A stretch of 64,000 nucleotides of DNA from contig CBDCDC010000002.1 of assembly GCA_965215195.1 (NCBI GenBank), positions 1,632,001 to 1,696,000 on the forward strand, in the 5' to 3' direction. The notes under the pieces are model-generated. The model saw nothing but the letters and a program-made list of their open reading frames with translations, was not told the origin of the DNA and did not search any database. This DNA comes from Candidatus Latescibacterota bacterium (lineage in GTDB: Bacteria; Latescibacterota; UBA2968; UBA8231). Shown here in pieces: positions 4,468 to 62,398 of the stretch. Positions within the stretch are counted from its first letter, which is position 1; every line of letters begins with the position of its first letter. Both the position numbers and the translations under genes were made by a program.

Positions 4468-4510
4468 GAAAGAAGGCGATACTAGTGAGGGGACGGTCGA
4501 CTCGAAACGC

Positions 4511-4550
4511 AGATGCCCTACCGGTAGATAAATCAACCGGTAGGGCATCT
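4511..4550. terminator. Hairpin between convergent aroA and DUF4159 genes
   Basis: agatgccctaccggt-N10-accggtagggcatct, a perfect 15-bp stem. Confidence 0.8.
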
Positions 4551-4573
4551 ACGACCTGCCGCTTAAAGGATGC

Positions 4574-5935
4574 TTATTGGGTGAATTGGGTCACATTGGC
4601 GATCCCACCCGGCTGGGTTAATGCATAGACGATTAGGTTGACCCCAAACTGTAGCCCGCGCTCTCGTGCATCGGCTAGCGGATCTCCCCAGTACCAGCTA
4701 ATATTTAGGTCGCTGAAGACCACTGCAACCCGACCACGCAGTTCCAGCATCTCCAAGTCAAAAACATTGCCAGCGGGTGCTCCGCCCATCGGCGGGCCAT
4801 CAGGGAAATCCCAGAAGCTGTAGTAAAGCGCGTGGCTCTTCGGCACTTTTTGCCACTTGGAGCCATCGCTACCCAGCACCAGCGGATGTTTCATCAGGGC
4901 CTTGAACTGGCGGTCAAACGGCGTACCCGAAACCCCGGCTTCCTTGCCTTCAAGCCCGTTCTCAGCGTCGCTTTGGCGAATCTCCTCGGCATAGAGAAAA
5001 CCACCGTTCTTGAGGTATTCGCCTAGGTTGGTCCTCTCTGTATTGCTGATTTGCAAGACAGCATCGTTGCCTGTCACGTAAAGCATGGGGGCATCCATGA
5101 TGCGCGGATCCGAAAACTCCAAGGTCGTGCCTTCAATTCGGGCATTGATTTGGGTATGGTCGCGCATATAGCGCATCAATTCCTCTACCGCAGTTGGGAA
5201 CCGATCGCGGTTCTTGTCTGCGATATCGTAGTCGATGACCGTCATGTTAAAGAAGCCGCGGATATTGCGTTTGTTGTCTGGATCCTGAATCAAGATCGCT
5301 TGGTAGCGGCCGATGTCCAAGTCGCCGACATTGAGCAATTCGTGCCTCAGACTCAGAGCCTCTTGCACCGGTGCCGACGTTTCAGCCAGTTCGATCATCG
5401 CAACCTCGTCGAAGGCTAACTCTTCGGCCTTGGCACCTGAGAAGGCACCCAAAACCTGCGTACCAGGCAAGACCGAGCTCAGGAGATCGCTACCTACCGC
5501 GCTAACATCGGCTATAGCAGAGATATCCTGCGGCAAATCCGGCGGTGCCATCGACTGTAGCATCTCCATCTGCACTTCGGATATCTCGGGACGCTTGGCT
5601 AAATCGAAGTTCTTTTCGAGAATCGGCGGAGGAGCGCGGAAGATGATTAGCTGCTCCTTTTTCTCTTCTTCGCCAATGCCAAAGAGATAATCATAAACGA
5701 AGACGCCAGCGTGAATGGCTACCGAGAGCACAAAGGCCACGCTCATGCTCAGCCGGCGGCCAGTGGTAGCCGTATATAGGGCGTATAACAGCACCCCGGC
5801 ACCCGCCAAACCAGCGGCGATCACCACCCACTTGGACAGGATGAAAAGCACATGAATGAGAAGGGCCGCGCCGACCGCTATATAGGCCGTTTTTTGGCGC
5901 TGGGCCTGTACTGCTTTTTTGTACTCGTCTACCAC
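4574..5935 (-). CDS. Membrane-anchored protein with a TonB-like TM segment (LSVAIH) and a C-terminal DUF4159-like domain
   Basis: N-terminal hydrophobic helices. The C-terminal part has PMLYVTG, ERTNLGEYLKNGGFLYAE, VPKSHALY, GRVAVVFS, GVNLIVYAL, typical of DUF4159. Confidence 0.75.
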   Translation of the reverse strand: MVDEYKKAVQAQRQKTAYIAVGAALLIHVLFILSKWVVIAAGLAGAGVLLYALYTATTGRRLSMSVAFVLSVAIHAGVFVYDYLFGIGEEEKKEQLIIFRAPPPILEKNFDLAKRPEISEVQMEMLQSMAPPDLPQDISAIADVSAVGSDLLSSVLPGTQVLGAFSGAKAEELAFDEVAMIELAETSAPVQEALSLRHELLNVGDLDIGRYQAILIQDPDNKRNIRGFFNMTVIDYDIADKNRDRFPTAVEELMRYMRDHTQINARIEGTTLEFSDPRIMDAPMLYVTGNDAVLQISNTERTNLGEYLKNGGFLYAEEIRQSDAENGLEGKEAGVSGTPFDRQFKALMKHPLVLGSDGSKWQKVPKSHALYYSFWDFPDGPPMGGAPAGNVFDLEMLELRGRVAVVFSDLNISWYWGDPLADARERGLQFGVNLIVYALTQPGGIANVTQFTQ

Positions 5936-5972
5936 AGTTCTTCCCCCTCTTGGAAGGGCCTAGAAACCTCAC

Positions 5973-6380
5973 TCAGTTACGCTGCGGTTCCGTGGCGATG
6001 ACCTGATCGATGACGCCCACTTGGCGAGCAATATCCATGATCTGGACAATTTGCCCGTGCGTAGAGCGCTCGTCTCCCTGGATAATAATCATCGTGGTGT
6101 TGTCCAGCAGTTGTCTCTTCGCCTGCAATTCCTCTTTGAGGGTTGCAAAGGTCACCGACTTGTGGTTCAGCTTCATGTTGCCGTCTTGGTCCACGACGAT
6201 AAAGAGGTTCTCCTTCTCCGGAGCCTGAGCCTCTTCGGCCTCGGGCAATTTGATATCCAAACCCGGAGTAATGGCGAACACAGCGGTCACCATAAAGAAG
6301 ATGAGTAGCTGAAAGACCACGTCAATCATCGGCGTCAGATCGGGCATGGTCAGTTCTTTTTTTTCTACTCTCTCAGCCAT
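5973..6380 (-). CDS. exbD: Biopolymer transporter ExbD/TolR
   Basis: DLTPMIDVVFQLLIFFMVT, IKLPEA, IIIQGD...HGQIVQIMD. Confidence 0.93.
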   Translation of the reverse strand: MAERVEKKELTMPDLTPMIDVVFQLLIFFMVTAVFAITPGLDIKLPEAEEAQAPEKENLFIVVDQDGNMKLNHKSVTFATLKEELQAKRQLLDNTTMIIIQGDERSTHGQIVQIMDIARQVGVIDQVIATEPQRN

Positions 6381-6409
6381 CTATTCATGCCTCCTAAGAA
6401 GAGCCGCCC

Positions 6410-7063
6410 TTAGGCAGCTTGAGTGCCTTGCCAGCGACGCAGCAGGGCGTCCACAAAACCGTGGCCGTATGCTTCAAACTCAACGGACTTGCCTGTGGCG
6501 CGGTTACTAAAGTACGTGAAGATGGCAATTGAAGGCACAGCAATCACCAGACCGGTAACTGTGGTGATCAGCGCTTCGGAAATACCTGCGGCGACGATCG
6601 TCGGCTCACCGAGACCCTTTTCCGCAATACCTTCGAAAGCGTTGATCATACCGTTGACCGTGCCCAGCAGGCCGAGCAACACCACGGATTTGGACACGAA
6701 GTCGATAACGGCCAGATACCGTTCGAGATATCCCAAGGCGGCGCGTTCAACCGTGCCGTTCATTTCCTCGCGCATCTCCTCCATCGTGCGTTGCTCGCGC
6801 GATAAATGCTCAAAGCGCTCGAGCCCTTCGCCGTACACCTCGCCTTCGAGCTTGCCGACCTCGGCGCAGTACTCTCTGAGCTGGTTAATGGAAGCACCCG
6901 AGTCGATACGCGCATTGATGTCGTTGGTGATTTCGGCCAATTCGTCCTCGGAGCGCAGCCGTGCATAAGTCCAGATGCGCTCGAGAAAGAACGCAATGGA
7001 AAGCATAGACCAGAGCCCCAAAGGATACATGAAAGGTCCGCCTTCTCGAAAAAGTTCAATCAT
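6410..7063 (-). CDS. exbB: MotA/TolQ/ExbB proton channel protein
   Basis: GGPFMYPL...ER, LLGLLGTVNGMINAF, AAGISEALITTVTGLVIAVP. Confidence 0.93.
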   Translation of the reverse strand: MIELFREGGPFMYPLGLWSMLSIAFFLERIWTYARLRSEDELAEITNDINARIDSGASINQLREYCAEVGKLEGEVYGEGLERFEHLSREQRTMEEMREEMNGTVERAALGYLERYLAVIDFVSKSVVLLGLLGTVNGMINAFEGIAEKGLGEPTIVAAGISEALITTVTGLVIAVPSIAIFTYFSNRATGKSVEFEAYGHGFVDALLRRWQGTQAA

Positions 7064-7105
7064 TTTCTTTCTCCCTCCTTAAGTTAGGACGCAAAAAAAT
7101 CAAGG

Positions 7106-10100
7106 TTATAGGACGCGAGCTTCCTGCATTACCTCTAGCTGCTCTCTGGCATAGTCCACCTGCGTCACGTACTTGGGGTTGTCGCCATAGTTGTCGACGA
7201 CTTCCTGAAAGATGGCACCGGCTTGGCGGAATTCTTCTTGGGCCATATAGGCGGCACCGACGTTGACCAGCGAGTTGACAGCTTGGTCGCTCTTGGGGTA
7301 CTTCTGCTGCACCTCCTTGAAGATCGCCATTGCCTCGTCGTAATTCTTCTCAGCTAAGAGCTTTTCACCTGTTGCATAAAGATTGTAGGCATCGATTTCA
7401 GCCAAGTGGCCGAGCAGGGTTCTTGCCTTTTTCGGCAGCACTCGATCTTGGGCAATCAGCTTGTCAGCGGGAAAGCGGTCCAAGAAAGTCTGGTAGCTCT
7501 CGGTGGCCTTCTCGTAATTTTTGAGGCCGTAATAGTAATCTCCGAGCGTAAATTGGCTGCGCGCCCCATAAGTACCATCGGAATATTCAGCGACGATTCG
7601 CTCGAAGACCGGCACCGCCTCTTCCTTTCGGTTGAGGTTAATCAGGCACCAAGCCTTGTTGTAGAGCGCATCGTCCATATGGCTCGACCTAGGATAGCGC
7701 TTAATGATTCGGTCATAGAAGACCATAGCATCTAGGAAGTTCTGGTTTTTGTCCTCCAAGCCGCTCCTATTAGTCATGTTAAATAGGGCATCGCCAGCGC
7801 GAAAAAGCGCCTCAGATGCATAGCGGGACCGCGGATACTTATCTGCTAGGCTAGCAAAAATATCGCTGGCAGCTCGCCATTTACCCATCCGATAATGCGC
7901 CCAAGCATCGTAGTAATAAGCATGCACAGCGCGCTCGTCTTCGGGATATTGGTTGTAATAGGCATTGAACGCCTTTGACATCGCTGGTAGCACTTCGACA
8001 TTGCCGTTAGCCGATAGCCTGTTATAAGCTACGCCGATTTGGAACTGGGCATTTTTGGCCCAAGCAATCTGCGGGTAGTTTTCGATGATAGTGTTATAAG
8101 TGGCAATCGCTTGGACGAACTGCTCCGACCTGTAGAAGCAGTTGCCTTGGACGAAGAGCGCGTTGGCAATGCTCTCGGCATTAATGGCCAGATTGATTAG
8201 CTCCTGGGCCGCGTCAATACTTTGCTGAAATTTATCTAGTTTGAAGTAGGCATTGGCCAAGCGAATGAGTAAGCGCTCCCGGTCCTCGCTAGAGGTAGTA
8301 GTAGCCAACATCTCCTCGTAAATGCGCACCGCTTCCTCTGGATTGCCCTTCTTTTCGGCCATTGAGATCAGCTGCAGCCGCGCCGAACGCACCAAGCTCT
8401 CGTCTCCTGAAGCAATGACTTCGTTCAGCAGCTTCTCCGCCTCGTCGTCGCTGCCTTCCGCAGAGTACGAGAGTGCCATCGAGAAAGTAACCTTTAGCTG
8501 CATAGCCTTCGGAATCTTGGTGTCCAATAGCCACTTGTAATCGACCAGCGCACGGTCGTAACGGCCCGAATAGTGGTAGGCCAATGCACGACCGTAGCGG
8601 CAGTCGCGAATGACATCGCTTTCTGGGTACTCTTCAAGTACCATGGTGTAGCGCTCGACTGCGTCGACGTAGTTCTTATTGTTAAGGTCGAGTTGAGCCA
8701 TCTGGAAATGGGCCCTAGCCTCCAAGTCGCGGTCGCCGGTTACACCTTCCAGCAATTGATTGAGCAACGCACGCCCCTCGACGATGCGATCTTGAGAAAT
8801 ATAGATATTGGCCGCCTCAATCAGCGCGGCGATGTACGTCTCGCGGGCATCGCGGTCAACCTTGGAAAAAGCAGCGACGGCCTCGTCTTGCCGCCCTTCG
8901 TCTCGGTAGAGAATACCAAGGCCATAGTAAGCATCGGCCGTATGCCGCGTATCCTGATAGCTTTCCGTTATGGCCTTGTAGGCTCCAATGGCCTCCTCGA
9001 CTTTCTGCTGCTCGTAGCTGAGCCGAGCGATGCGCAACAAGCACAACGGCGCTTGGTCAGAACGGGGGAAGTTGTCCACCGCCTGCGTGTAACTCGCAAT
9101 AGCCTGGTCCACCACGCCGAATTTCTCGGCAGACCAACCTGCGCTATAAAGCGCTGCGGAGCGCAAACCCGTATCGCTATCCGGGTAATCCATCAGCAGT
9201 TGTAGGTAGTCTTCGCGGGCAGCGGCGTAGTCCCCGGCGAAGTATTTAGCTTCGCCTTTCTGATACTGAGCGTTAGATGGATAAGGCGTATCCCCGTAGA
9301 GTTCAATCACTTGGTTGTAAGCGGTCCATGCCTCGTCGAACTTATCCCACTCCATGTAGTTGTCGCCAATTCTCATCTGCACCTTAGCCTTGTAAAAGCG
9401 CTCCTCGGCGGTTTCCTGAGCGGCGATCAATTCTTGGTAGGCTTCCTCGAACTGATCTGTTTTGCGAAAAATTTCAGCGACGCGCAACGAGGAGGTCTCG
9501 AAGAGCTCTCGGTAGTTTTCAAAATCGACATTCTTACCCTCGCGAAACGAACCGCGCAGGAGTTCAAACATCCGGTCGTAGAGATTGCGCACATCGCGAT
9601 AGGCTTTAATTGCCTCCTCGTCGCGTCCCATCTGGTCATAGGCTCTGGCCTCCAGATAGAGGGCCTGAGCAATGACCGGGCTATTGGGGTACTTGTCGAG
9701 GACTATCTGGGTCATGTCGACAGCTACACCGTACTCACCCTTCTCATAAAGAGCACTGGCGATGCGATATTGGGAATCCGGAGCATAGCGATCTTGCGGA
9801 TAAGCCGCCAGCATGCCGTTGAGCGTTTCGATGGACTGGTCGTATTCTTTTGTATTAAACTCGCTCCAGCCCGCGTAAAAATACGCCTTGCCGGCTTCTT
9901 TCGTCTCGGGGAACAACTCGACATAGCGCTTGTATTCCTTTGCTGCCTCGCCGTACTCTTTGGCGAGGAAGCGGGTCTCGGCGACTTGGAACTGCACCAA
10001 TGACCTGAAATCCTCGGCTACGGTCCCGACGTCAATAACTTGGCGATAGGCTTCCACCGCTTTTTCGTGTTGCCCGCTCTTTTTGTAGGCATTGCCCAGC

Positions 10101-10351
10101 TGGTACCAAGCCGCCGCGACTACGGGCAATTCCAATTCGTTGCCAAACACCACCCGTACACTATCGGTGCGCACGGCCTTGCTATTGAACTTGACTATCT
10201 TTGAATACTCGAGGATCGCCCCTTCAAACTCGCCAAGGGCATAGAGAGATTGTCCGGCGTCAAAACTGGTCTTCAGATTTTGCGGCACCGGTAGAAAAAG
10301 GCTAGCTCCTAGCCCCAATCCTAGTGCGATAAGTCCAGCCCAGACCGTCAT
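7106..10351 (-). CDS. Very large TPR protein (BamD/CpoB-like repeats) with an N-terminal membrane anchor or signal
   Basis: 1081 aa of tandem A.Y..G..YY...Y..A...Y..V...YP.S repeats, preceded by a hydrophobic N-terminus. Confidence 0.88.
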   Translation of the reverse strand: MTVWAGLIALGLGLGASLFLPVPQNLKTSFDAGQSLYALGEFEGAILEYSKIVKFNSKAVRTDSVRVVFGNELELPVVAAAWYQLGNAYKKSGQHEKAVEAYRQVIDVGTVAEDFRSLVQFQVAETRFLAKEYGEAAKEYKRYVELFPETKEAGKAYFYAGWSEFNTKEYDQSIETLNGMLAAYPQDRYAPDSQYRIASALYEKGEYGVAVDMTQIVLDKYPNSPVIAQALYLEARAYDQMGRDEEAIKAYRDVRNLYDRMFELLRGSFREGKNVDFENYRELFETSSLRVAEIFRKTDQFEEAYQELIAAQETAEERFYKAKVQMRIGDNYMEWDKFDEAWTAYNQVIELYGDTPYPSNAQYQKGEAKYFAGDYAAAREDYLQLLMDYPDSDTGLRSAALYSAGWSAEKFGVVDQAIASYTQAVDNFPRSDQAPLCLLRIARLSYEQQKVEEAIGAYKAITESYQDTRHTADAYYGLGILYRDEGRQDEAVAAFSKVDRDARETYIAALIEAANIYISQDRIVEGRALLNQLLEGVTGDRDLEARAHFQMAQLDLNNKNYVDAVERYTMVLEEYPESDVIRDCRYGRALAYHYSGRYDRALVDYKWLLDTKIPKAMQLKVTFSMALSYSAEGSDDEAEKLLNEVIASGDESLVRSARLQLISMAEKKGNPEEAVRIYEEMLATTTSSEDRERLLIRLANAYFKLDKFQQSIDAAQELINLAINAESIANALFVQGNCFYRSEQFVQAIATYNTIIENYPQIAWAKNAQFQIGVAYNRLSANGNVEVLPAMSKAFNAYYNQYPEDERAVHAYYYDAWAHYRMGKWRAASDIFASLADKYPRSRYASEALFRAGDALFNMTNRSGLEDKNQNFLDAMVFYDRIIKRYPRSSHMDDALYNKAWCLINLNRKEEAVPVFERIVAEYSDGTYGARSQFTLGDYYYGLKNYEKATESYQTFLDRFPADKLIAQDRVLPKKARTLLGHLAEIDAYNLYATGEKLLAEKNYDEAMAIFKEVQQKYPKSDQAVNSLVNVGAAYMAQEEFRQAGAIFQEVVDNYGDNPKYVTQVDYAREQLEVMQEARVL

Positions 10352-10408
10352 TTGTGTATCTCCTTATCTAGGTTTCTAGTTTGGAGTTCATCTAGGGCTT
10401 TTTTTGTT

Positions 10409-11347
10409 TTAGAATTGGTATGCAAAGGAGAACCGATGCGCCCCATTGGTCTCGGTCAAGTCCAAGCTGATGTCATACGCATAGTCGAACATCAACTGAT
10501 TCCACTGATAGCCCAACCCCGCATTCAACCCCCCCCCCGCGTCCTCCGACACCAAACGACGCCCCCCCGCCCGCAGCAGCAACCCCTCCACCACCTGCGT
10601 CTCCCCACCGACGACCAACCCCTGATCCGAACCCTCCCCCGTCAAGTCCCGAACCACGTATTGCACCGACACCAACGACTGACTGCTCAGCCGATAGCCC
10701 ACCCCCACATGCACGTCCATCGGCAACGCACCCGCATCCGCGTCGCCAGCCACCTCGCCATACGCCACATTCGGCTGGTTGACATTCTTCAACAACACCC
10801 CCACCTGCGCCCCTGGCACCGGACTCTGCCACAGCAAACCCAAATCCAAGCCCACGTTGCCCGCGCTCTGGTTCGACAGCGGATCGGGACCATTCACCGG
10901 ATCATCGGGAATGGAGCCCACGCTCCAAAACAGATACTTGGCCGACACCCCCACCTGCAGCCGCCGCTGCACCTGATACGACAGCGCCACAAACGCCCCG
11001 TTCTCGCTCATCAGCGACGAGCCAATCCGTTCATATCCCAAGCCCAAGCCCAGCCGGTCACCCAAAGGCTGCGCATAGGACACCACGTGCTGACCCAAGT
11101 CGTCGCCTTCGATGCCCGCATACAAAAGCGACACATTGGTGTAGGCCACCTGCCGCTGCGCCACCTGACCCAACCCCGCCGGGTTGGCAAACACCGCATC
11201 CGCGTTGTCGGCCACCGCCACAAAGCTGTTGCCCAACCCCTGCGCACGCGCTCCCGAACCCACATTCTGAATGTTCACAACCCCTTCGCTTGATTGGGCG
11301 ACGAACAGCAAGCCGATTAAAATACTAAGCATTTTTAGAGATTTCAT
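10409..11347 (-). CDS. PorV/PorQ (UPF0164, FadL-like) outer-membrane beta-barrel protein
   Basis: Signal peptide, GSGARAQGLGNSFVAVADNADAVFANPAGL motif, LDLGLL, FDYAY, and terminal HRFSFAYQF. Confidence 0.85.
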   Translation of the reverse strand: MKSLKMLSILIGLLFVAQSSEGVVNIQNVGSGARAQGLGNSFVAVADNADAVFANPAGLGQVAQRQVAYTNVSLLYAGIEGDDLGQHVVSYAQPLGDRLGLGLGYERIGSSLMSENGAFVALSYQVQRRLQVGVSAKYLFWSVGSIPDDPVNGPDPLSNQSAGNVGLDLGLLWQSPVPGAQVGVLLKNVNQPNVAYGEVAGDADAGALPMDVHVGVGYRLSSQSLVSVQYVVRDLTGEGSDQGLVVGGETQVVEGLLLRAGGRRLVSEDAGGGLNAGLGYQWNQLMFDYAYDISLDLTETNGAHRFSFAYQF

Positions 11348-11382
11348 AATGCCAACTCCTCCTTGGTGGTCTCGCTTAAAGG

Positions 11383-12129
11383 CTAGTTTGCCTTAGCGAC
11401 TTTAGGAATGACCGTGCCGTCCTTGTAAATCTTGCCGATATCTCGGACGAATTTATAGGAAATATTGGTGGTCTCCACCGGCTCGTTGCGAAAGTCAAAT
11501 CGCAGGATTACATCAAGCACTTGGACTTCGATATCACTCACGTCGGGGTGGAGTACGGGAAAAATGACGAAACCCTCCGCCTCTTGGCCGCTGAAGATCT
11601 CCTCGTCTTTGAGCATCGTCCGCCTCAGCAAGTCGCGGCGCTCCTGGTAGCGGGCATATTCGTTGCCCCTATAGCCTATGGCATAGGCGCGATAATAAGT
11701 ATCGAGTTGCTCAAAGTTGAGACTCCAATACTCACGCTTATTGCTCGCTTTGACGACGATTTTGCTCGGATCAATCTTGACTTTGGGATAGGCGTAATTC
11801 TTAATGCTGAGACGAAAGACGGTGAATCGCTGTTTTTCTTCGTCTGTCCCCCAAAATACCGTATTGCCAAAGGTATAGGGGTTTGTGGACTTAGGACCCG
11901 CTTGGGAATTGTTGAAAAACTGGCGGTTCAATTCCTCGTCAGTCATAGGCTTGAGTCGCACTTCAAAGCGGTCCTGGGCAAAGGTCAGGGTCCCGTCATC
12001 TGCCACGCTGATAGACGAGGCCTGGTCTTGGCCAGGCTGTAATGGCCCTGTGTAATAGCTATATCCACAGCCCAGCAAACCCGAGCCAATAATCAAGGCC
12101 GAGAATAATACTCGTGTGAAACTCATCAT
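11383..12129 (-). CDS. Hypothetical lipoprotein, paralog of 26839-27597
   Basis: Lipobox LLGC. Shares VADDGT, PMTDEELNRQF, NPYTFGN, QRFTVFR and NY.YPKV..DP with the paralog. Confidence 0.8.
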   Translation of the reverse strand: MMSFTRVLFSALIIGSGLLGCGYSYYTGPLQPGQDQASSISVADDGTLTFAQDRFEVRLKPMTDEELNRQFFNNSQAGPKSTNPYTFGNTVFWGTDEEKQRFTVFRLSIKNYAYPKVKIDPSKIVVKASNKREYWSLNFEQLDTYYRAYAIGYRGNEYARYQERRDLLRRTMLKDEEIFSGQEAEGFVIFPVLHPDVSDIEVQVLDVILRFDFRNEPVETTNISYKFVRDIGKIYKDGTVIPKVAKAN

Positions 12130-13062
12130 TCAGAAACTCCTCGGTGGTACAGCTTCTGTGTATAAAGAGGCTTTCAAACGCCCCCAAGACCTCGACTCCA
12201 CAGCCGTCCCTTGAAAAGTACCCTCTAGCGGCATCAGGATCAAGTCAGTGAAGCGATCGGAAAAGCGATACGAGTTGTGTTGGCCCGAAAGCGACCACTT
12301 AGCATCAAAAAGCTCTGAATGCGCATCAAGATCGTTGAACTCTACATTAAAACCAAGGATTTCACCTTCCCGCAAGAGGTGCTCTTCGCTTTGAAAGACC
12401 GCATTGATATCGACGTGGTCAAAAGGCAGAAGCATGACTTCGTAGTTCGTCACTCCCTCTCCTCCCAAGATGCCTATAAACTCAACTGCCGCCCTAGTAT
12501 AGGGACCATCGGATAGCGCGTACCAAGCGGCGGCGGAAAAATTGACGAAGAAATCTTCGTCAGGCGACGGGCCAGCCAGAACGAAGTGATTGGCTTCAGA
12601 TCCGTTGCGTCGCCTCTGCTCTTCGTGGCTCAACTCGGTGAAATTGGCGAATTGTCCCCCTGAGTGGTCCGCGTCGATAAATAATTCCATCGCATCGTCT
12701 TGGAAAAGCACCGTAGCACTACCGGCAGGACGATCGATCTGATGTATATCATCGCGAACCAGAGCAGCGATGTAGAGCCTGTTCATCGCTTTATTCCACC
12801 CTACCATGAGACGGGCGGAAAAATCGCCCGAATCGCTCGCCTTAACTTTTGGACTAATCAGGTCGTGAAATTGACCCGTTAATATAGCGTAGGAGTCGCC
12901 TACAACCTCCCAATCTCTCAAATCTCCATCAATGGTGGGAACCAAGTGATCGGGAAATTGAAAGGCTCTATAGGCCACTCCTTCGGGGTAATGACCCAGA
13001 ACCGATTTAGTCGAGCCTACTATTATCTGTAGCACCAGCCCTAAAAAAATAAACGCGACCAT
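12130..13062 (-). CDS. Exported CBM9/DOMON-like protein with a C-terminal TAVE..SWGR.K motif
   Basis: Signal-like N-terminus, PTIDGDLRDW, LYIAALVRDD, DAMELFID, GEILGFNV, TAVESRSWGRLK. Confidence 0.7.
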   Translation of the reverse strand: MVAFIFLGLVLQIIVGSTKSVLGHYPEGVAYRAFQFPDHLVPTIDGDLRDWEVVGDSYAILTGQFHDLISPKVKASDSGDFSARLMVGWNKAMNRLYIAALVRDDIHQIDRPAGSATVLFQDDAMELFIDADHSGGQFANFTELSHEEQRRRNGSEANHFVLAGPSPDEDFFVNFSAAAWYALSDGPYTRAAVEFIGILGGEGVTNYEVMLLPFDHVDINAVFQSEEHLLREGEILGFNVEFNDLDAHSELFDAKWSLSGQHNSYRFSDRFTDLILMPLEGTFQGTAVESRSWGRLKASLYTEAVPPRSF

Positions 13063-13124
13063 AGAACCTCGGCCAACGCCCTCTCATCCGTTTTTTGATG
13101 TCTTTCAATCTATTATCGGGCTGT

Positions 13125-13153
13125 ATGATAATCAATGGTCTAAGACGTGTCAA
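13125..13153 (-). promoter_or_regulatory. Sigma70-type promoter for module A
   Basis: Minus strand TTGACA-17 nt-TATCAT in the AT-rich divergent intergenic region. Confidence 0.7.
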
Positions 13154-27607: not shown

Positions 27608-30358
27608 CTACTCGAGACCGGCGAACACGGTGATGAACATAGCCGTTTCAGTGTGTGCCTTTTCGACCGAGGCGCGATCGATCCGCGACACGCGGAACCC
27701 AGTCTGGGTCCATAAGTTGTAGCCTAGGTATTCGGCGTTGTTGGTAAACTGCAAGGCATAAACCATCTCGTTGCGATCCGAGCGCAGCAAATGGGTTTCC
27801 AACTCCTTGCGGAACTGCTCAACGAGCAGGTACTCTAGGCCGGTCTGCAATTCGGTGCGCGACAGGATGGGTACGCGCAGGACCAAAGACCAGAGCTCGC
27901 GCAATTCCGTAGTTGCCACCCGCACCTGGGTGGCCTCGCGGCGCGAAGGACGCTGGCGCTGGAACTCGCTCTTCCAGCGCGGCTGGAACTTGATGACTCC
28001 GAGATCGAACGTGTAATCGACCTTATTGAGGATGCCAAAGAAGGAAGCCGTCTCGCGGATGTCCTGCTCCTCAATGGGCCGCTCGTCGAAATTGGATTGC
28101 TTGAATACCTCCCACTTGAAGCGATTCTTGAAGTGGATGTGGTCACTTTGGTACTGATAGCCTAAGTACAGGGTATTGGCCCAACCATCGCGTAGGGGTA
28201 GAGGATCAGCATAGGGTACGTCGTCGCCGCGTGATCCCTCGAATACAACCCACTCAATCACATCGTCGCGAATATCGTCCTGGACTTTACGGTAGTTATT
28301 GTATACTTGCACACGCCCCTTGCTGGCGTAGTCCTTGTCAAAGGTAAGCAAAGCGTAATTAGTGACGTTCTCGCGGGCGTCGGCTAGCTGTCGTTCGTCG
28401 AGGCGACCGACGGTTAGCCGCGCCTCCGGCCCCAAATGGGATCCCACGTAGATATTGTACCCGCGCCGATCCCGTTTGTACAAGTAGTCGGGCTGTTCGT
28501 CGTTTTCGAAGCGGTCAACGATGCCATTGTTGTTCATATCGACGCCGAAGAGGAACTCGGGTCGATCGGATGCATACCGCAAGAACGGCTCCTCGTAATC
28601 GGGAACTGTATTCTCGCGCCAATCATTGTCATTTTGGTTGAAGTCGTTGATGAAGTCGTTGTTCTCGTCAAAACCGGGGAAGACCCGGAGGTCCTGCGAG
28701 AAATTGGCGCGCAGCCAGTCGGGATTGCGGTCTTGATCGTCATTATCGTCGACGAATTCGTAAACGAAACGTCTTTCGTCGTCGTAGTCGATATCGGCCG
28801 CGTCGTTTAGGGTGCCGGCTAAAAAGGTGCTGGTGCTGTAGCTGGGATCAACGCTATAGACCTCGCCGAAGCTGTAGTAGGGATACGCTCGCTTATAGGC
28901 ATTGATAAACCAAGCGTCGGCCGAGATATTGTGGGCTTGGTGATTGGTCACATCAATCTCGGACCGCCGCGGGTAGCGAAAGTGCTGTCGGTTCCGATCG
29001 TATTCACCCGCAAGATAAAATCCGCTGACGTCGGAAACGTCGAGGGTGACGCCGAAAATCTCATTGGCTACCGGCAACCCGTATTTGACGCGCACGAAGC
29101 CTTGGTTTGAGCCATCCTTCACATTGCCGTCAGCACGTACCGTGCGCTCGGGGATACCCTCGGAGAGCAAGACTGGCTGAAAGTTGCGGTTAGCTTGGCG
29201 GTTGGAGGTGACGTCGATCCGGTAATCGTTGGCCAAGAGCAACAGGAACTCAATGCTCTTAATCTGTTCGGGCCGGGGGCCGAAGGAATTGCGGTACTGA
29301 GGACCCTCGAGGTCGTACACTAGCACAATGATTTCGTTGCCATCGGCCGAGAGGAATCCCTCGCGGCGGAAACCACCCTGTACCGACGGGCTGAAGTCGA
29401 GGACATTGCTATCACCAATTTGGCGACGATTACTGATGCGCTCGCCATCGATGGTCGTAATGATCATCTCCTCCTGGAAGAAGGCCGTGCCGGCGATGTT
29501 ATCCTCGGGTGAATCGTCGCTCAAGCGCACTTCAATACGCGTAATGTCGGCGTTGTTCTGGCCCTCGGTAAGCGTACCTTTGAAGGGGTTGCCCTGGAAT
29601 GCCTGCCCCTTGGTCGAGGAGTTGAAAGCATTGACGTAGGTCGCGCCAACCTTGACAAAGTCGCCGACCTGCATGGTGCCGCGACCACCGATCAAGTTGG
29701 TGTCGTTCGAGCGGAAACGAGCAGTGCTGGCCGTCTCTAAGGTTTCGACTTGCCCAGGCGAGCTGGGACGCGACACGAGAAGAGTCGTCTCGTACTTGTC
29801 GGTGGCCAAGTCGAACTGAATACCGGCGAACGTCGGTTTGGAAAAAGTCATCGGCGTCAGCGTCGTGCGGATGCGATCGCCAATGGTCAGGGCATAGGCA
29901 TATTGGCCCTTCTGGTCAGAGGCAATAACCACGCTTGCAAACCAAGAAGAGAATCTGTCCGTCTTGAACAGGCTGCTACCCGAGGTTTGTGGTGCCGCGA
30001 CGCTCCAATCGTAAACGAGTTGGCCGCGGGTGATGTAATTCCCGTAGAGGTCGTAGAAATACGTGCCCTCTTGGTTGGTATTCACAAAGCGCTCATAATG
30101 TCGACGAGCGTAATTGGTATAGTCCTGTTGTCGCCACTGGTACTCGTTGAAGAGTTCCTGGGGCACGTACCACTTCTTCACCGCCGGATCCAGCGCGTCA
30201 AAGAGGACGCCAGGCCCCACAGGGTCGTAATATACTTCTCCACCGCGGCGCACACCCAAGCGCGAACCGAAGTCCTCCTGTGCTAGGAGATGCTCTACCA
30301 CCACTCCCAGCATCAGCAACACAACCGCACCGATGCGGCAACTCCTAGCTGTGTTCAC
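27608..30358 (-). CDS. Large hypothetical exported protein, probable outer-membrane beta-barrel with acidic loops
   Basis: Signal peptide, many alternating amphipathic strands, terminal strand MFITVFAGLE, and loops DDNDDQD and DMNNNGIVD. Confidence 0.65.
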   Translation of the reverse strand: MNTARSCRIGAVVLLMLGVVVEHLLAQEDFGSRLGVRRGGEVYYDPVGPGVLFDALDPAVKKWYVPQELFNEYQWRQQDYTNYARRHYERFVNTNQEGTYFYDLYGNYITRGQLVYDWSVAAPQTSGSSLFKTDRFSSWFASVVIASDQKGQYAYALTIGDRIRTTLTPMTFSKPTFAGIQFDLATDKYETTLLVSRPSSPGQVETLETASTARFRSNDTNLIGGRGTMQVGDFVKVGATYVNAFNSSTKGQAFQGNPFKGTLTEGQNNADITRIEVRLSDDSPEDNIAGTAFFQEEMIITTIDGERISNRRQIGDSNVLDFSPSVQGGFRREGFLSADGNEIIVLVYDLEGPQYRNSFGPRPEQIKSIEFLLLLANDYRIDVTSNRQANRNFQPVLLSEGIPERTVRADGNVKDGSNQGFVRVKYGLPVANEIFGVTLDVSDVSGFYLAGEYDRNRQHFRYPRRSEIDVTNHQAHNISADAWFINAYKRAYPYYSFGEVYSVDPSYSTSTFLAGTLNDAADIDYDDERRFVYEFVDDNDDQDRNPDWLRANFSQDLRVFPGFDENNDFINDFNQNDNDWRENTVPDYEEPFLRYASDRPEFLFGVDMNNNGIVDRFENDEQPDYLYKRDRRGYNIYVGSHLGPEARLTVGRLDERQLADARENVTNYALLTFDKDYASKGRVQVYNNYRKVQDDIRDDVIEWVVFEGSRGDDVPYADPLPLRDGWANTLYLGYQYQSDHIHFKNRFKWEVFKQSNFDERPIEEQDIRETASFFGILNKVDYTFDLGVIKFQPRWKSEFQRQRPSRREATQVRVATTELRELWSLVLRVPILSRTELQTGLEYLLVEQFRKELETHLLRSDRNEMVYALQFTNNAEYLGYNLWTQTGFRVSRIDRASVEKAHTETAMFITVFAGLE

Positions 30359-59524: not shown

Positions 59525-62398
59525 TTAAAACGCCACGCCCAACTGGGCAAAGACCAAGCGGCCAATCTCCGGGGCCCCAATAAAGGTCCGGTGCTTGTTG
59601 TCGAGCGCGTTGGAAACATCTACCCCGAGCCGCAAATTGCTTCCGACCGGCAGCAGATAACTGGCGTTCAAATCGAGTAGCGAGTACGCATCCACATCCC
59701 CGACGAATACCCCCGACTCTTGGCGGAACGCCCCCACGTAGCGCCACTGCGCCCCTAGGGTTAGCTGCGGTTGGTCGAAGGTGTAGGACGTGCCTAGCTT
59801 GTATTTGTTACCCGGCGCGTTGAGGGCCACGTCGGCGATGCCATCGACATTTTCAAACAAGGTCTCATCAACGTAAGAGTAGCTGCCCGTTAGCACCCAT
59901 TCGTCGCTCGGGAAATAGGCCAAGTTCACATCCAGCCCGTTGAGGGTAATCTCGCCGAAGTTGCGATAGGTCAACATCACGGCCGTCGGGTCGTAGGCTT
60001 GCTCGGGCGTAACCGTGCCAAACGGTATGCCCGCGGCTCCGCCGGCAAACAACGCGACAATTTCATCCGCCGGCGAGCCATTGCCATTGCCAGACAAGGT
60101 GCCCGGGACCTGCATGTTGTCGAGCGGAGCGATCGCCTCGGCCAACTCTGCATCTTCGGCCAGCGCCTCGCCAAGGCTAGCACCTAGCGCCGCCCCGAGG
60201 CTAGCCGGATCGAGGAATACATTGGGCGTCTGGACCTGAACTGGGGAGACGAAATCCTCGATCCGGGTGCGATACAGGTCGGCCGCCACCACCAACTTCG
60301 TGCCGATAACCCCCTTGTAGCCCAGTTCAAAGGTCTCGGTAGTTGTCGAGCGAGTCAGGGGCACGTCTAAAACATCGGCTACCGGATCAAAGGGGGCCGG
60401 ATCGCCGGCTGCCACCTTCTCGAGGTTGAGCATAGCCAAGGCATTGTCCAACCCGCTCAGTTGTTCGGGTACCAGCGCAGCTAACCCGCCCAATAGCTGC
60501 TCGGCGGCAGCCTCAGCCGCTGCTTGGTCCAGCTCTCGCAGGACCCCTATCTGGGTCGCCGCTAGTCCCCGAAAAAGCTCTGTATCGAGCCTGCTCAACA
60601 CGCCGCGACGCCCTAGACCCCACATCACATTGGTAAAAACCGGATCCCCCAAGTCGATATAGTCGGCCTTCTGCATCCCCCCCACTGGCGCAAAGGGCGA
60701 GCGGAACTGCGGCCGGCCATTGCCCGAGCGAGCAAAGGTCCAGCCATCGGCAAAACCCTCGCGATAGGTTCCCTGCGCCCGCACGTCAATGGCCGGCGCA
60801 AAGCCCAGCGATGGCGCAAAGGCCGCGCCAATGCCAAAGGGATCCGGGCTGGAGAGGAGGTCCAAATAGAGGTTGTTGCTCGATGGAGTTGCAAAGGCGT
60901 GGTTGTAGGTCAGCCGCAGGATCTGGGTCTCCTGCGGCTTAAAAACTAGCCCGGCGCGCGGCGAGATCTCGGCGTCGGCAATGCGGTTGTGGTCGTCGTA
61001 GCGCAAGGCCACCACCAAGTCGAGCATCTCGCTCAGGGCCGTCTCGCTCTGCACGTAGGCCCCAAATTCGTCGATCTGGTCGTAGTCCTCGTTCTCGCCG
61101 TTGATGGTCCCCTCAGTATCGGGCCGCGTCAGCAGCACATCGACGCCGTAGGTGAAGCGCTGCCTCACTCCCAGCGCCGAGGAGTGCTGAAGTTGGAACG
61201 CGGTCAGCTTGGAGTTATCGACGATCGGATTCCCATCGCGCAGGGTAAAGGTGTCGCCGGCGTTGCTCCCATTTTGAAAGACCTGAGCAAACCAATCCTT
61301 GTACAGCAGGCGAAACTGGACATATTTGTACGCCCAATCTTGAGCTTGGCCGGCCCCTAGGCCGGTCAATTCGATCTGGTCGCCCTTGTTGTATCCGTAC
61401 GCCAAAATGGCCGTCAAGTCATCCGATGCCCGGTAGTCAAAGCGCACTTCGGCGCTCTGGCGCTCAATGTCAAAATTGCGCGCTGGAATGTCTGGATTGG
61501 CGGTCCTAGACCGCACCTCCTCCGGGTCTTCGTATTCCCAATCCATCCCCGTATAGTACTGGGCCGAGACCTTGTAGCCGAGGCGCTCGCCAGCAGCCCC
61601 GGCGTGGCGCATACCGACCTTGTACACACTCCGCTCGCCCACGCCCAAGTTGACATTGGTCCCCGCCGAAGTGAACGGCGAGCGGGTGATGATGTGCATC
61701 ACGCCGTTGGCGCTATTGGGACCGTAGAGCGCCGACCCCGGCCCCAACACCACCTCAATGCGCTCGATATCGTCGTTGGTCACCGGAATGAAATTGTAGG
61801 CATTCAGCCGCAGCGAGGGAATGCGGGCAATGCGATTGTCGGTCAGCGTCAGCAGCGTACCAGAAAAGACATTGTTGAAGCCCCGCACGACCACATTGCT
61901 CTGGGCCAAGCCGGTCTGGGAAAAATCCACGGCCGGCAGGTCGCGGATGTGCTCGGCGACGCTGAGCGCCGGCCGGTTGCGGATCTCCTTGGCCTCAACC
62001 ACTGCCACCGAGGCCGGGGCTTCGAGGACTTTTTCCTGACGCCGCGAGGCCGAGACTACGTTTTGGTCGAGGAAGATGATTCCCGTTTCCAGCGTCAGCA
62101 TCAGCTCCTGCTCGCCAGCGACGATGCCAACCCCTTCTCGCGTTAGGGGCCGATAGCCGATATGCGTGATGCTGAGCTGATACTCGCCGGCCGGCAACCC
62201 CTGCAAGCGGAAGCGACCGTCTTCGTCGGTGGCCGTGCCGACCTTGCCGCCGGGCAGGCGGTCGCCGACGAGGGCGATGTTGGCCCCGGGAATGGCTTCG
62301 CCCTCCGACCCCATCACGACACCGAAAAGCGTTCCCTCTTGGCCGAAGGCGACGCCCGCCCACAGCACCAGAGCATATACCAGCAGCTTGTTTTTCAT
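59525..62398 (-). CDS. TonB-dependent receptor with an N-terminal carboxypeptidase-regulatory-like domain
   Basis: IPGANI...TDEDGRF, VVSASRR.EK..EAPAS, RGFN, IERIEVVLGPGSALYGPNS..GV..IIT, NALDNK, terminal F. Confidence 0.95.
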   Translation of the reverse strand: MKNKLLVYALVLWAGVAFGQEGTLFGVVMGSEGEAIPGANIALVGDRLPGGKVGTATDEDGRFRLQGLPAGEYQLSITHIGYRPLTREGVGIVAGEQELMLTLETGIIFLDQNVVSASRRQEKVLEAPASVAVVEAKEIRNRPALSVAEHIRDLPAVDFSQTGLAQSNVVVRGFNNVFSGTLLTLTDNRIARIPSLRLNAYNFIPVTNDDIERIEVVLGPGSALYGPNSANGVMHIITRSPFTSAGTNVNLGVGERSVYKVGMRHAGAAGERLGYKVSAQYYTGMDWEYEDPEEVRSRTANPDIPARNFDIERQSAEVRFDYRASDDLTAILAYGYNKGDQIELTGLGAGQAQDWAYKYVQFRLLYKDWFAQVFQNGSNAGDTFTLRDGNPIVDNSKLTAFQLQHSSALGVRQRFTYGVDVLLTRPDTEGTINGENEDYDQIDEFGAYVQSETALSEMLDLVVALRYDDHNRIADAEISPRAGLVFKPQETQILRLTYNHAFATPSSNNLYLDLLSSPDPFGIGAAFAPSLGFAPAIDVRAQGTYREGFADGWTFARSGNGRPQFRSPFAPVGGMQKADYIDLGDPVFTNVMWGLGRRGVLSRLDTELFRGLAATQIGVLRELDQAAAEAAAEQLLGGLAALVPEQLSGLDNALAMLNLEKVAAGDPAPFDPVADVLDVPLTRSTTTETFELGYKGVIGTKLVVAADLYRTRIEDFVSPVQVQTPNVFLDPASLGAALGASLGEALAEDAELAEAIAPLDNMQVPGTLSGNGNGSPADEIVALFAGGAAGIPFGTVTPEQAYDPTAVMLTYRNFGEITLNGLDVNLAYFPSDEWVLTGSYSYVDETLFENVDGIADVALNAPGNKYKLGTSYTFDQPQLTLGAQWRYVGAFRQESGVFVGDVDAYSLLDLNASYLLPVGSNLRLGVDVSNALDNKHRTFIGAPEIGRLVFAQLGVAF

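Follow-up and report, generated by a model that had tools for sequence, protein, structure and literature searches.

An ExbB-ExbD motor is encoded in the window (the whole 64,000-nucleotide stretch of DNA that was analysed here), and the gene that follows it specifies a protein that ends in a DUF4159 domain. The question raised by this locus is whether such a protein transmits the force of the motor and, if so, to which partner. To our knowledge, DUF4159 is a domain with a solved structure that is otherwise unstudied.

Genetic organization of the exbBD-DUF4159 locus

The DUF4159-encoding gene (positions 4574 to 5935), an open reading frame specifying 453 amino acids (aa), is the last of seven co-directional genes on the minus strand. 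The run opens with a gene for a CBM9-like protein (12130 to 13062; PF06452, E 1.3e-4, slightly under the cut-off) and continues with those for an unclassified 248-aa lipoprotein with 20 paralogues in the genome (11383 to 12129), a PorV/PorQ-like small outer-membrane barrel (10409 to 11347; NF033709, E 6.5e-22, under the cut-off), a giant TPR protein of 1081 aa with a hydrophobic N-terminus, being one of five genome paralogues (7106 to 10351), ExbB (6410 to 7063; PF01618, E 3.6e-23) and ExbD (5973 to 6380; PF02472, E 8.3e-28). The DUF4159 gene lies directly 3′ of these two motor genes, as reported in the preliminary description of this DNA.

A hairpin (4498 to 4561, minus strand; -42 kcal/mol, z -6.5), located 3′ of the stop codon of the 453-aa gene and before the convergent aroA, is the likely end of the transcript. 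The sigma-70-type promoter-like site found 5′ of the seven-gene run (13125 to 13153, minus strand) is defined by 11 of 12 consensus matches only, and sigma-70-type sites in the region were not above the number in shuffled sequences (4 versus 6.5). RNA-library contigs of close relatives from four studies span approximately positions 4560 to 13100 and reach little further upstream, which is a weak hint at an operon transcript, as such contigs carry neither strand nor single-transcript information. Profile searches detected neither tolB nor pal among the seven genes; no transporter gene is present in the operon here, and no large barrel gene is present in the operon of the source genome or its closest relatives. 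Among named sequences, the nearest relatives come from metagenome-assembled genomes with the title Candidatus Latescibacterota or Gemmatimonadota, and many of these are 94 to 97% identical. A second copy of the PorV-like gene, 94.5% identical, is located elsewhere in the same genome (G000:C2:634134-635066).

The C-terminal head

The head (residues 196 to 453; 4577 to 5350, minus strand) comprises a beta-strand extension followed by the DUF4159 domain, the latter being matched by PF13709 across residues 235 to 439 (4619 to 5233; E 8.5e-26, 91.2 bits against a cut-off of 25.9). An AlphaFold2 model of residues 185 to 453, based on a 109-sequence alignment, reached a pLDDT of 90.2, and the head resembles PDB 4i66 in both sequence (E 1.3e-26) and structure (Foldseek E 1e-8; Z 22.2, rmsd 2.0, 188 residues aligned). 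The earlier assignment of a DUF4159-like C-terminal domain in place of TonB_C is upheld by these scores and by the absence of TonB_C (PF03544) from the protein, in which PF13709 was the only match at E up to 0.1. The structure 4i66 is that of Hoch_4089, a DUF4159 (PF13709) protein, the family being placed in Pfam clan CL0014 (PMC4702930).

The next structural matches of the head are class I amidotransferase-like folds (Z about 9), and four residues, H368, D379, R400 and N433, are invariant in the DUF4159 subfamily. The catalytic triad of class I glutamine amidotransferases includes a cysteine, and none occurs in the 453 residues; the protein therefore lacks an amidotransferase triad, and we infer that the head is a non-catalytic binding domain.

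A three-helix anchor with two histidine motifs

The N-terminal part of the protein is predicted to form three membrane helices. The first (about residues 17 to 34; 5834 to 5887, minus strand) carries the motif A24-x3-H28 (5852 to 5866) and is predicted to be oriented N-in/C-out; the second (about residues 36 to 58; 5762 to 5830, minus strand) is a return helix that leads into a basic cytoplasmic loop containing G59 and R61; and the third (about residues 62 to 85; 5681 to 5752, minus strand) carries the motif S71-x3-H75. The last of these motifs, encoded at positions 5711 to 5725, is the SxxxH segment noticed previously, and the E. coli TonB motif with which it was then compared agrees with the portion of PMC12215075 available. 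The single transmembrane segment of the preliminary description is replaced by three helices in the model, the first with a histidine motif of its own. The full-length AlphaFold2 model, which derives from a shallow alignment (pLDDT 38) and was used for the three helices only, places them at residues 2 to 32, 35 to 58 and 64 to 85 with pLDDT values of 55 to 69. Judging from the basic residues ahead of helix 1 (K6, K7, R13 and K15) and those between helices 2 and 3, both histidine helices would be oriented N-in/C-out, as in TonB.

Among the best 120 of 372 homologues (69 to 96% identity), H28 is retained in 119 (with one gap), A24 in 118 and H75 in 118, while position 71 is occupied by Ser in 84 and by Ala in 36, so that the motif is best written as small-x3-His. 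A24-x3-H28 is thus the better conserved of the two; mean conservation is 0.71 for helix 1 and 0.64 for helix 3, and the retention of H75 against the latter mean is more than chance. The full S-x3-H-x6-L-x3-S (SHLS) motif was not found in a single membrane helix, as the Leu and the second Ser are missing from both histidine helices, the residues at His+7 and His+11 being D82 and G86 in one and K35 and I39 in the other.

Histidine motifs were scored at 67 loci (64 of 77 homologous loci and 3 further ones) in which the linker motif was found, 13 loci being left out as fragments, short forms, broken frames or motif variants; many of the 67 are near-identical and hence not independent. Both histidine motifs are present at 44 of these loci, the first only at 13, and a single histidine helix at 10, while none lacks both. 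The expectation that the SxxxH motif is conserved in orthologues beside exbBD was, therefore, borne out in part: the cited His75 is replaced by Glu or Leu in 13 of the 57 three-helix loci, whereas the helix-1 histidine, not noticed at the time, is present at every one of the 57. A tree was calculated from 38 de-replicated rows, with an outgroup whose branch is very long. In it, the single-helix forms diverge first, those with three helices cluster (support 94/80), and nine of the ten rows without His75 fall into one clade (support 100/100). Helix 3 corresponds to the single helix of the deeper orthologues, and evolution of the anchor from a single-helix to a three-helix form appears likely, though unproven.

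Several comparisons bear on the origin of this anchor. Of 150 distant representatives, 72 are 370 to 600 aa long, and 63 of these possess an N-terminal hydrophobic segment; a small-x3-His motif was located in that segment in 51 (one of them spurious by eye), compared to 108 of 1168 six-frame control ORFs. Helix 3 aligns His-on-His with the TonB helix of the same genome, albeit weakly (hhalign E 0.042, probability 1.2%). A profile that covers the anchor (the helix and the segment following it), built from 57 DUF4159 proteins without any TonB and run over 27,485 six-frame genome ORFs, retrieved a sole non-DUF4159 match at E <0.5, namely, the TonB of a canonical exbB-exbD-exbD-tonB cluster (E 4.8e-4). 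Of all the findings, this retrieval argues most strongly for a TonB-related anchor module. The same S-x3-H helix is also carried by two tandem proteins of 435 and 426 aa (L150:2592-3899 and L150:4080-5360; G000:C1 about 658.6 to 661.4 kb, minus strand), whose linker resembles residues 99 to 126 and whose C-terminal part is without a Pfam match, apparently representing an additional kind of head on that anchor.

The periplasmic linker

Anchor and head are joined by an acidic, predicted periplasmic linker of 110 aa (residues 86 to 195; 5351 to 5680, minus strand) with a net charge of -13, which is not Pro-rich. Its earlier characterization as low-complexity sequence was not sustained, as no 12-residue window of residues 86 to 195 reached the SEG trigger and residues 99 to 126 display a conservation of 0.96, above that of the DUF4159 domain (0.90). 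In TonB, the D-box that follows the helix is an alternating hydrophobic/polar, proline-flanked strand (according to the available portion of PMC10907165) located 10 to 15 residues past the helix (likewise for PMC12905483). Two candidate ExbD-binding strands are present in the linker, of which residues 96 to 104 (5624 to 5650, minus strand) occupy the D-box position, with residues 96 to 101 fitting the pattern partly, while residues 121 to 127 (5555 to 5575, minus strand), about 36 residues past the last helix, display the exact hydrophobic/polar pattern. The exact pattern was found in 5 of 50 distant homologues (0.7 in shuffled sequences), and a relaxed pattern, defined post hoc, in 39 of 50 (0.2 in shuffled sequences), with its Phe mostly at His+23.

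The ExbB-ExbD motor

The cognate ExbD carries the transmembrane Asp D20, and the ExbB protein possesses the pore threonines T135 and T168, both conserved in 32 of 32 aligned sequences, in addition to P177 and S19, the latter retained in at least 90%. The motor residues are, by these alignments, intact. Equivalence of ExbB residues to those of E. coli is here assumed, partly by way of a TolQ/ExbB alignment. An aliphatic residue stands in place of E. coli Trp38 in the cognate ExbB and its orthologues, and likewise in the ExbB of the canonical Ton cluster of this genome. In E. coli, Ser16 and His20 of TonB contact ExbB Ser34 and Trp38 (PMC12215075, available portion). Five loci (L045, L046, L048, L053 and L064) encode orthologues of the DUF4159 protein that are 64 to 74% identical, yet their motor is only 26 to 32% identical and includes two exbD genes, which points to different histories of motor and transducer.

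Conservation of gene order and genome paralogues

At all 70 loci with an anchored form and available upstream DNA, exbD is located directly upstream of the DUF4159 gene, down to 46% identity; the remainder of the 77 loci consists of three fragments and four short DUF4159 proteins that have a signal peptide and whose genes lack a neighbouring exbD. Among 12 genomes from nine families, with up to 42 DUF4159 matches per genome, eight possess a long DUF4159 frame beside exbD, while the other four contain long DUF4159 frames or matches, none of which adjoins exbD. The range so covered is one phylum, an attempt to reach another via locus L065 having returned the same phylum.

In the source genome, the subfamily profile produced 23 matches: the 453-aa gene, 11 near-identical paralogues with an S-x3-H-x6-L motif, a 584-aa histidine form (twice, identical), six anchored forms without the histidine, two short forms and one fragment. 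The anchored paralogues that lack the histidine, one of which resides in an exbB-exbD cluster, count against a strict histidine rule; one TonB_C protein of this genome likewise has a helix without the histidine. The 11 near-identical paralogues (L079, L081, L083, L084, L087, L088 and L090) have a basic linker, are mostly found inside tandem arrays of approximately 730-aa T9SS sorting-domain proteins and constitute a recent expansion at sites remote from motor genes.

Some further features of these paralogues were observed. The identical copies of the 584-aa gene are located near the ends of both contigs (G000:C1:1584-3338 and C2:4847043-4848797) and are probably an assembly overlap. At L080 (G000:C2 about 1239.4 to 1240.4 kb), a DUF4159 gene of the short, canonical kind overlaps an ORF called as PorZ-like (L080:5574-7766; NF052228, E 1.7e-52), and the two are thus adjacent. 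In three proteins of 582 to 626 aa (P0139, P0143 and P0169), the DUF4159 subfamily is joined to an N-terminus that, by eye, resembles an ECF sigma factor.

Co-distribution with a family of large barrel-like proteins

The DUF4159 subfamily is present in 39 of 67 genomes of the same phylum and a family of approximately 900-aa barrel-like proteins in 38, the two agreeing in 66 of 67; presence runs by family, with both in 10, neither in 3 and a mixture in 1 of 14, so that related genomes are not independent and few independent gains or losses are represented. The source genome contains 53 matches to the barrel-like family, the nearest of which (27608 to 30358, minus strand) lies outside the operon, while at nine orthologous loci (L023, L028, L030, L063, L069, L076, L108, L109 and L119) barrel genes are part of the same-strand run. 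Furthermore, at four of the five giant-TPR loci of the genome an anchored DUF4159 gene is found within about 7 kb.

Pfam and NCBIfam provided no name for any large barrel tested. The family is considered barrel-like on account of its strand periodicity and a sub-threshold lead to DUF6029 (0.89) in the ESM Atlas, which otherwise returned unnamed clusters only. At a threshold of 0.5, 27 strands were counted versus 15.6 in shuffled sequences, with none of 300 shuffles as high; at a loose threshold, the count of 31 was not above shuffles (mean 22.5, maximum 32). No membrane helix beyond the signal region was predicted in 52 of 52 members. Members of the family contain Asp-rich repeats and are often encoded beside one of the 20 paralogous lipoproteins and sorting-domain proteins. 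For the 248-aa lipoprotein of the operon, the ESM Atlas returned nothing; one paralogue (L089:9740-11086, plus strand) has a C-terminal extension that is TonB_C-like by eye, with no Pfam match at E up to 1.

Proposed function and alternative explanations

Anatomy, conservation, gene order, fold and co-distribution are matters of observation here, and contact, energy use and substrate are parts of a proposed mechanism. The DUF4159 protein is very probably a non-TonB force transducer for the neighbouring ExbB-ExbD motor, being TonB/TolA-like at the inner membrane with a different output. The preliminary description had suggested that ExbBD energizes a periplasmic effector other than TonB, a proposal which gains from the gene order, the histidine conservation, the intact motor residues and the retrieval of TonB by the anchor profile. 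The idea of a non-TonB head on an SHLS helix has already been published for vWA domains. The absence of the ExbB Trp, the incomplete SHLS motif, the paralogues without the histidine and the displaced exact D-box pattern are points against a transducer with a TPR/barrel output, as are the operon without a large barrel gene, the few independent gains or losses behind the co-distribution, the barrel assignment by strand periodicity and the four genomes in which no DUF4159 frame adjoins exbD.

According to this proposal, the small-x3-His helix would dock on the ExbB pentamer at its rim, while the conserved linker strand would bind the ExbD dimer. The three-helix anchor of this lineage would present two histidine helices in the same orientation, the first of which may be able to serve alone. 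Proton-driven movement would then pass via the 110-residue linker to the DUF4159 head, and the head, as a non-catalytic domain, would bind a partner in the periplasm, for which the operon's giant TPR protein is the likeliest candidate. The pull may ultimately reach the approximately 900-aa outer-membrane barrels, working with lipoproteins and T9SS-exported sugar-binding proteins, probably in nutrient capture and uptake. That the transducer acts through the giant TPR protein on these barrels is plausible, if just short of an even prospect, and a motor-driven transducer with a TPR/barrel output is the best explanation overall, its chances of being correct being evenly poised. A bolder version, which is speculative and rather doubtful, envisages a third Ton-like system in which ExbBD drives about 20 DUF4159-tipped transducers that act via giant TPR proteins to open or load about 50 barrels of an undescribed family, which replace SusC-type transporters in these bacteria, and in which the second histidine helix may grip two ExbB subunits and have taken over docking in one clade.

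The alternative that fares best, though unlikely, is a motor-bound scaffold or regulator that moves no cargo, acting as a Tol-like envelope tether or as a clamp of motor and TPR protein. A clamp on two ExbB subunits is conceivable with two histidine helices, the conservation and acidity of the linker are unusual, the TPR protein has its top score against a CpoB/YbgF model (TIGR02795, E 3e-87, repeat-driven), and a scaffold would accord with an operon devoid of a transporter gene; the same operon is, however, devoid of tolB and pal, and the logic of transporter paralogues fits the numbers of DUF4159 and barrel-family matches per genome better than does a housekeeping tether.

Replacement of GldL and GldM by ExbBD and the DUF4159 protein, which would thus power type IX secretion in a phylum without them, was the first idea considered and was subsequently lowered, as the subfamily tracks the barrels and not SprA; it is now held to be improbable. 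The genome encodes SprA, a PorZ-like protein and PorV-like barrels, one of the latter within the operon, along with 101 T9SS sorting-domain matches, while GldM, GldL and GldN returned no match in searches run without a positive control, and the placement of most of the 11 S-x3-H-x6-L paralogues within sorting-domain arrays is in keeping with the idea. SprA, however, was detected in 65 of the 67 genomes, and every one of the 28 with neither the DUF4159 subfamily nor the barrels has it; genome G004 possesses SprA and 101 sorting-domain matches without the subfamily. Across the phylum, sorting-domain proteins are many, yet GldM was above the cut-off in none of the 67 genomes (again with no positive control); since the subfamily is missing from 28 SprA-bearing genomes without a GldM match, it is not present wherever SprA works without GldM.

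Still less probable is a TonB substitute that energizes ordinary TonB-dependent receptors via a new binding domain. The homology of the anchor to the TonB anchor of this genome and the TonB-dependent receptor gene in the window (59525 to 62398) would suit such a role, but the genome already has three TonB_C matches, all away from the 453-aa gene and one of them in the canonical exbB-exbD-exbD-tonB cluster, the fold of the head differs from TonB_C, and no receptor occurs among the labelled conserved neighbours. Least probable of all is a membrane-tethered enzyme (an amidase or hydrolase of class I amidotransferase-like fold) with the histidine helices as mere anchors, as, despite the fold match, the four invariant residues and the precedent of the TonB homologue FusB, which indicates that TonB-like proteins can hold added roles (PMC13253070, available portion), the protein has no cysteine and its buried histidine holds its place in homologues ranging from 96% down to about 30% identity, which, like the fixed position of the gene after exbD, is unexpected of a plain anchor.

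Relation to known systems

The proposed transducer shares with the E. coli TonB-ExbB-ExbD and TolA-TolQ-TolR systems (Celia et al. 2025, PMC12215075; Loll et al. 2024, PMC10907165; available portions) a Ser/small-x3-His helix, the gene order after exbB-exbD, the motor Asp and Thr residues and a beta-type segment after the helix; unlike TonB and TolA, it has three helices, no TonB_C or TolA C-terminal domain and no Pro-rich segment, the second half of SHLS is gone, the ExbB Trp is replaced, and tolB and pal are missing from the operon. It matches DUF4159/4i66 above the Pfam cut-off and in fold, but differs in its TonB-type anchor and in the added beta-strand segment before the domain, representing a distinct and much expanded subfamily of which a short form also occurs in the genome. 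As in the T9SS of Bacteroidota, a PorV-like barrel and a TPR protein are encoded in the operon and SprA and sorting-domain proteins in the genome, whereas the motor is ExbBD and not GldLM and the distribution of the subfamily among genomes does not match that of SprA.

The closest parallel is provided by the vWA-headed transducers, in which an SHLS helix, a linker of approximately 100 aa and a vWA head are encoded downstream of TPR-tolQ-tolR (Williams-Jones et al. 2025; PMC12204202, available portion), and which, according to the same portion, are described computationally only and have no known function. Common to both are a histidine helix, a motor box within a linker of some 100 residues, a globular head other than TonB_C and a gene position 3′ of TPR and motor genes. 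The protein described here differs in its DUF4159 head, its three-helix anchor with two histidine motifs, the presence of one exbD (two in some orthologues) and its link to a PorV-like barrel, a lipoprotein and large barrels. A non-TonB head on an SHLS helix is, therefore, a published concept, and what differs is the DUF4159 head and the duplicated-His anchor; the DUF4159 protein would work like TonB without being a TonB and belongs with the published transducer class. DUF4159 is not mentioned in the text or the one supplement of PMC12204202 covered, and the portion of PMC12993501 available does not mention TonB or ExbB. Within the literature searched, which misses most subscription papers, no description of a DUF4159 head on a transducer was found, and DUF4159, PF13709, Hoch_4089 or 4i66 appeared only in a passing mention in the Pfam paper (PMC4702930).

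If correct, the proposed function would give DUF4159 a role at the output end of a proton-driven 5:2 motor, would add a head type to TonB_C, TolA and vWA, and points to the large barrels, a family not yet described, as the probable client. The three states of the anchor that occur in nature (one helix, three helices with two histidines and three helices with the first histidine only) bear on the coupling of the TonB histidine to the motor, and the takeover of docking in one clade would, if true, constitute a natural experiment on the role of that histidine. Elsewhere in the genome, three near-equal weak MotA/ExbB matches with no adjoining ExbD match (G000:C2:1025681, 2895702 and 4035946) are possibly the tolQ-only vWA motors of PMC12204202.
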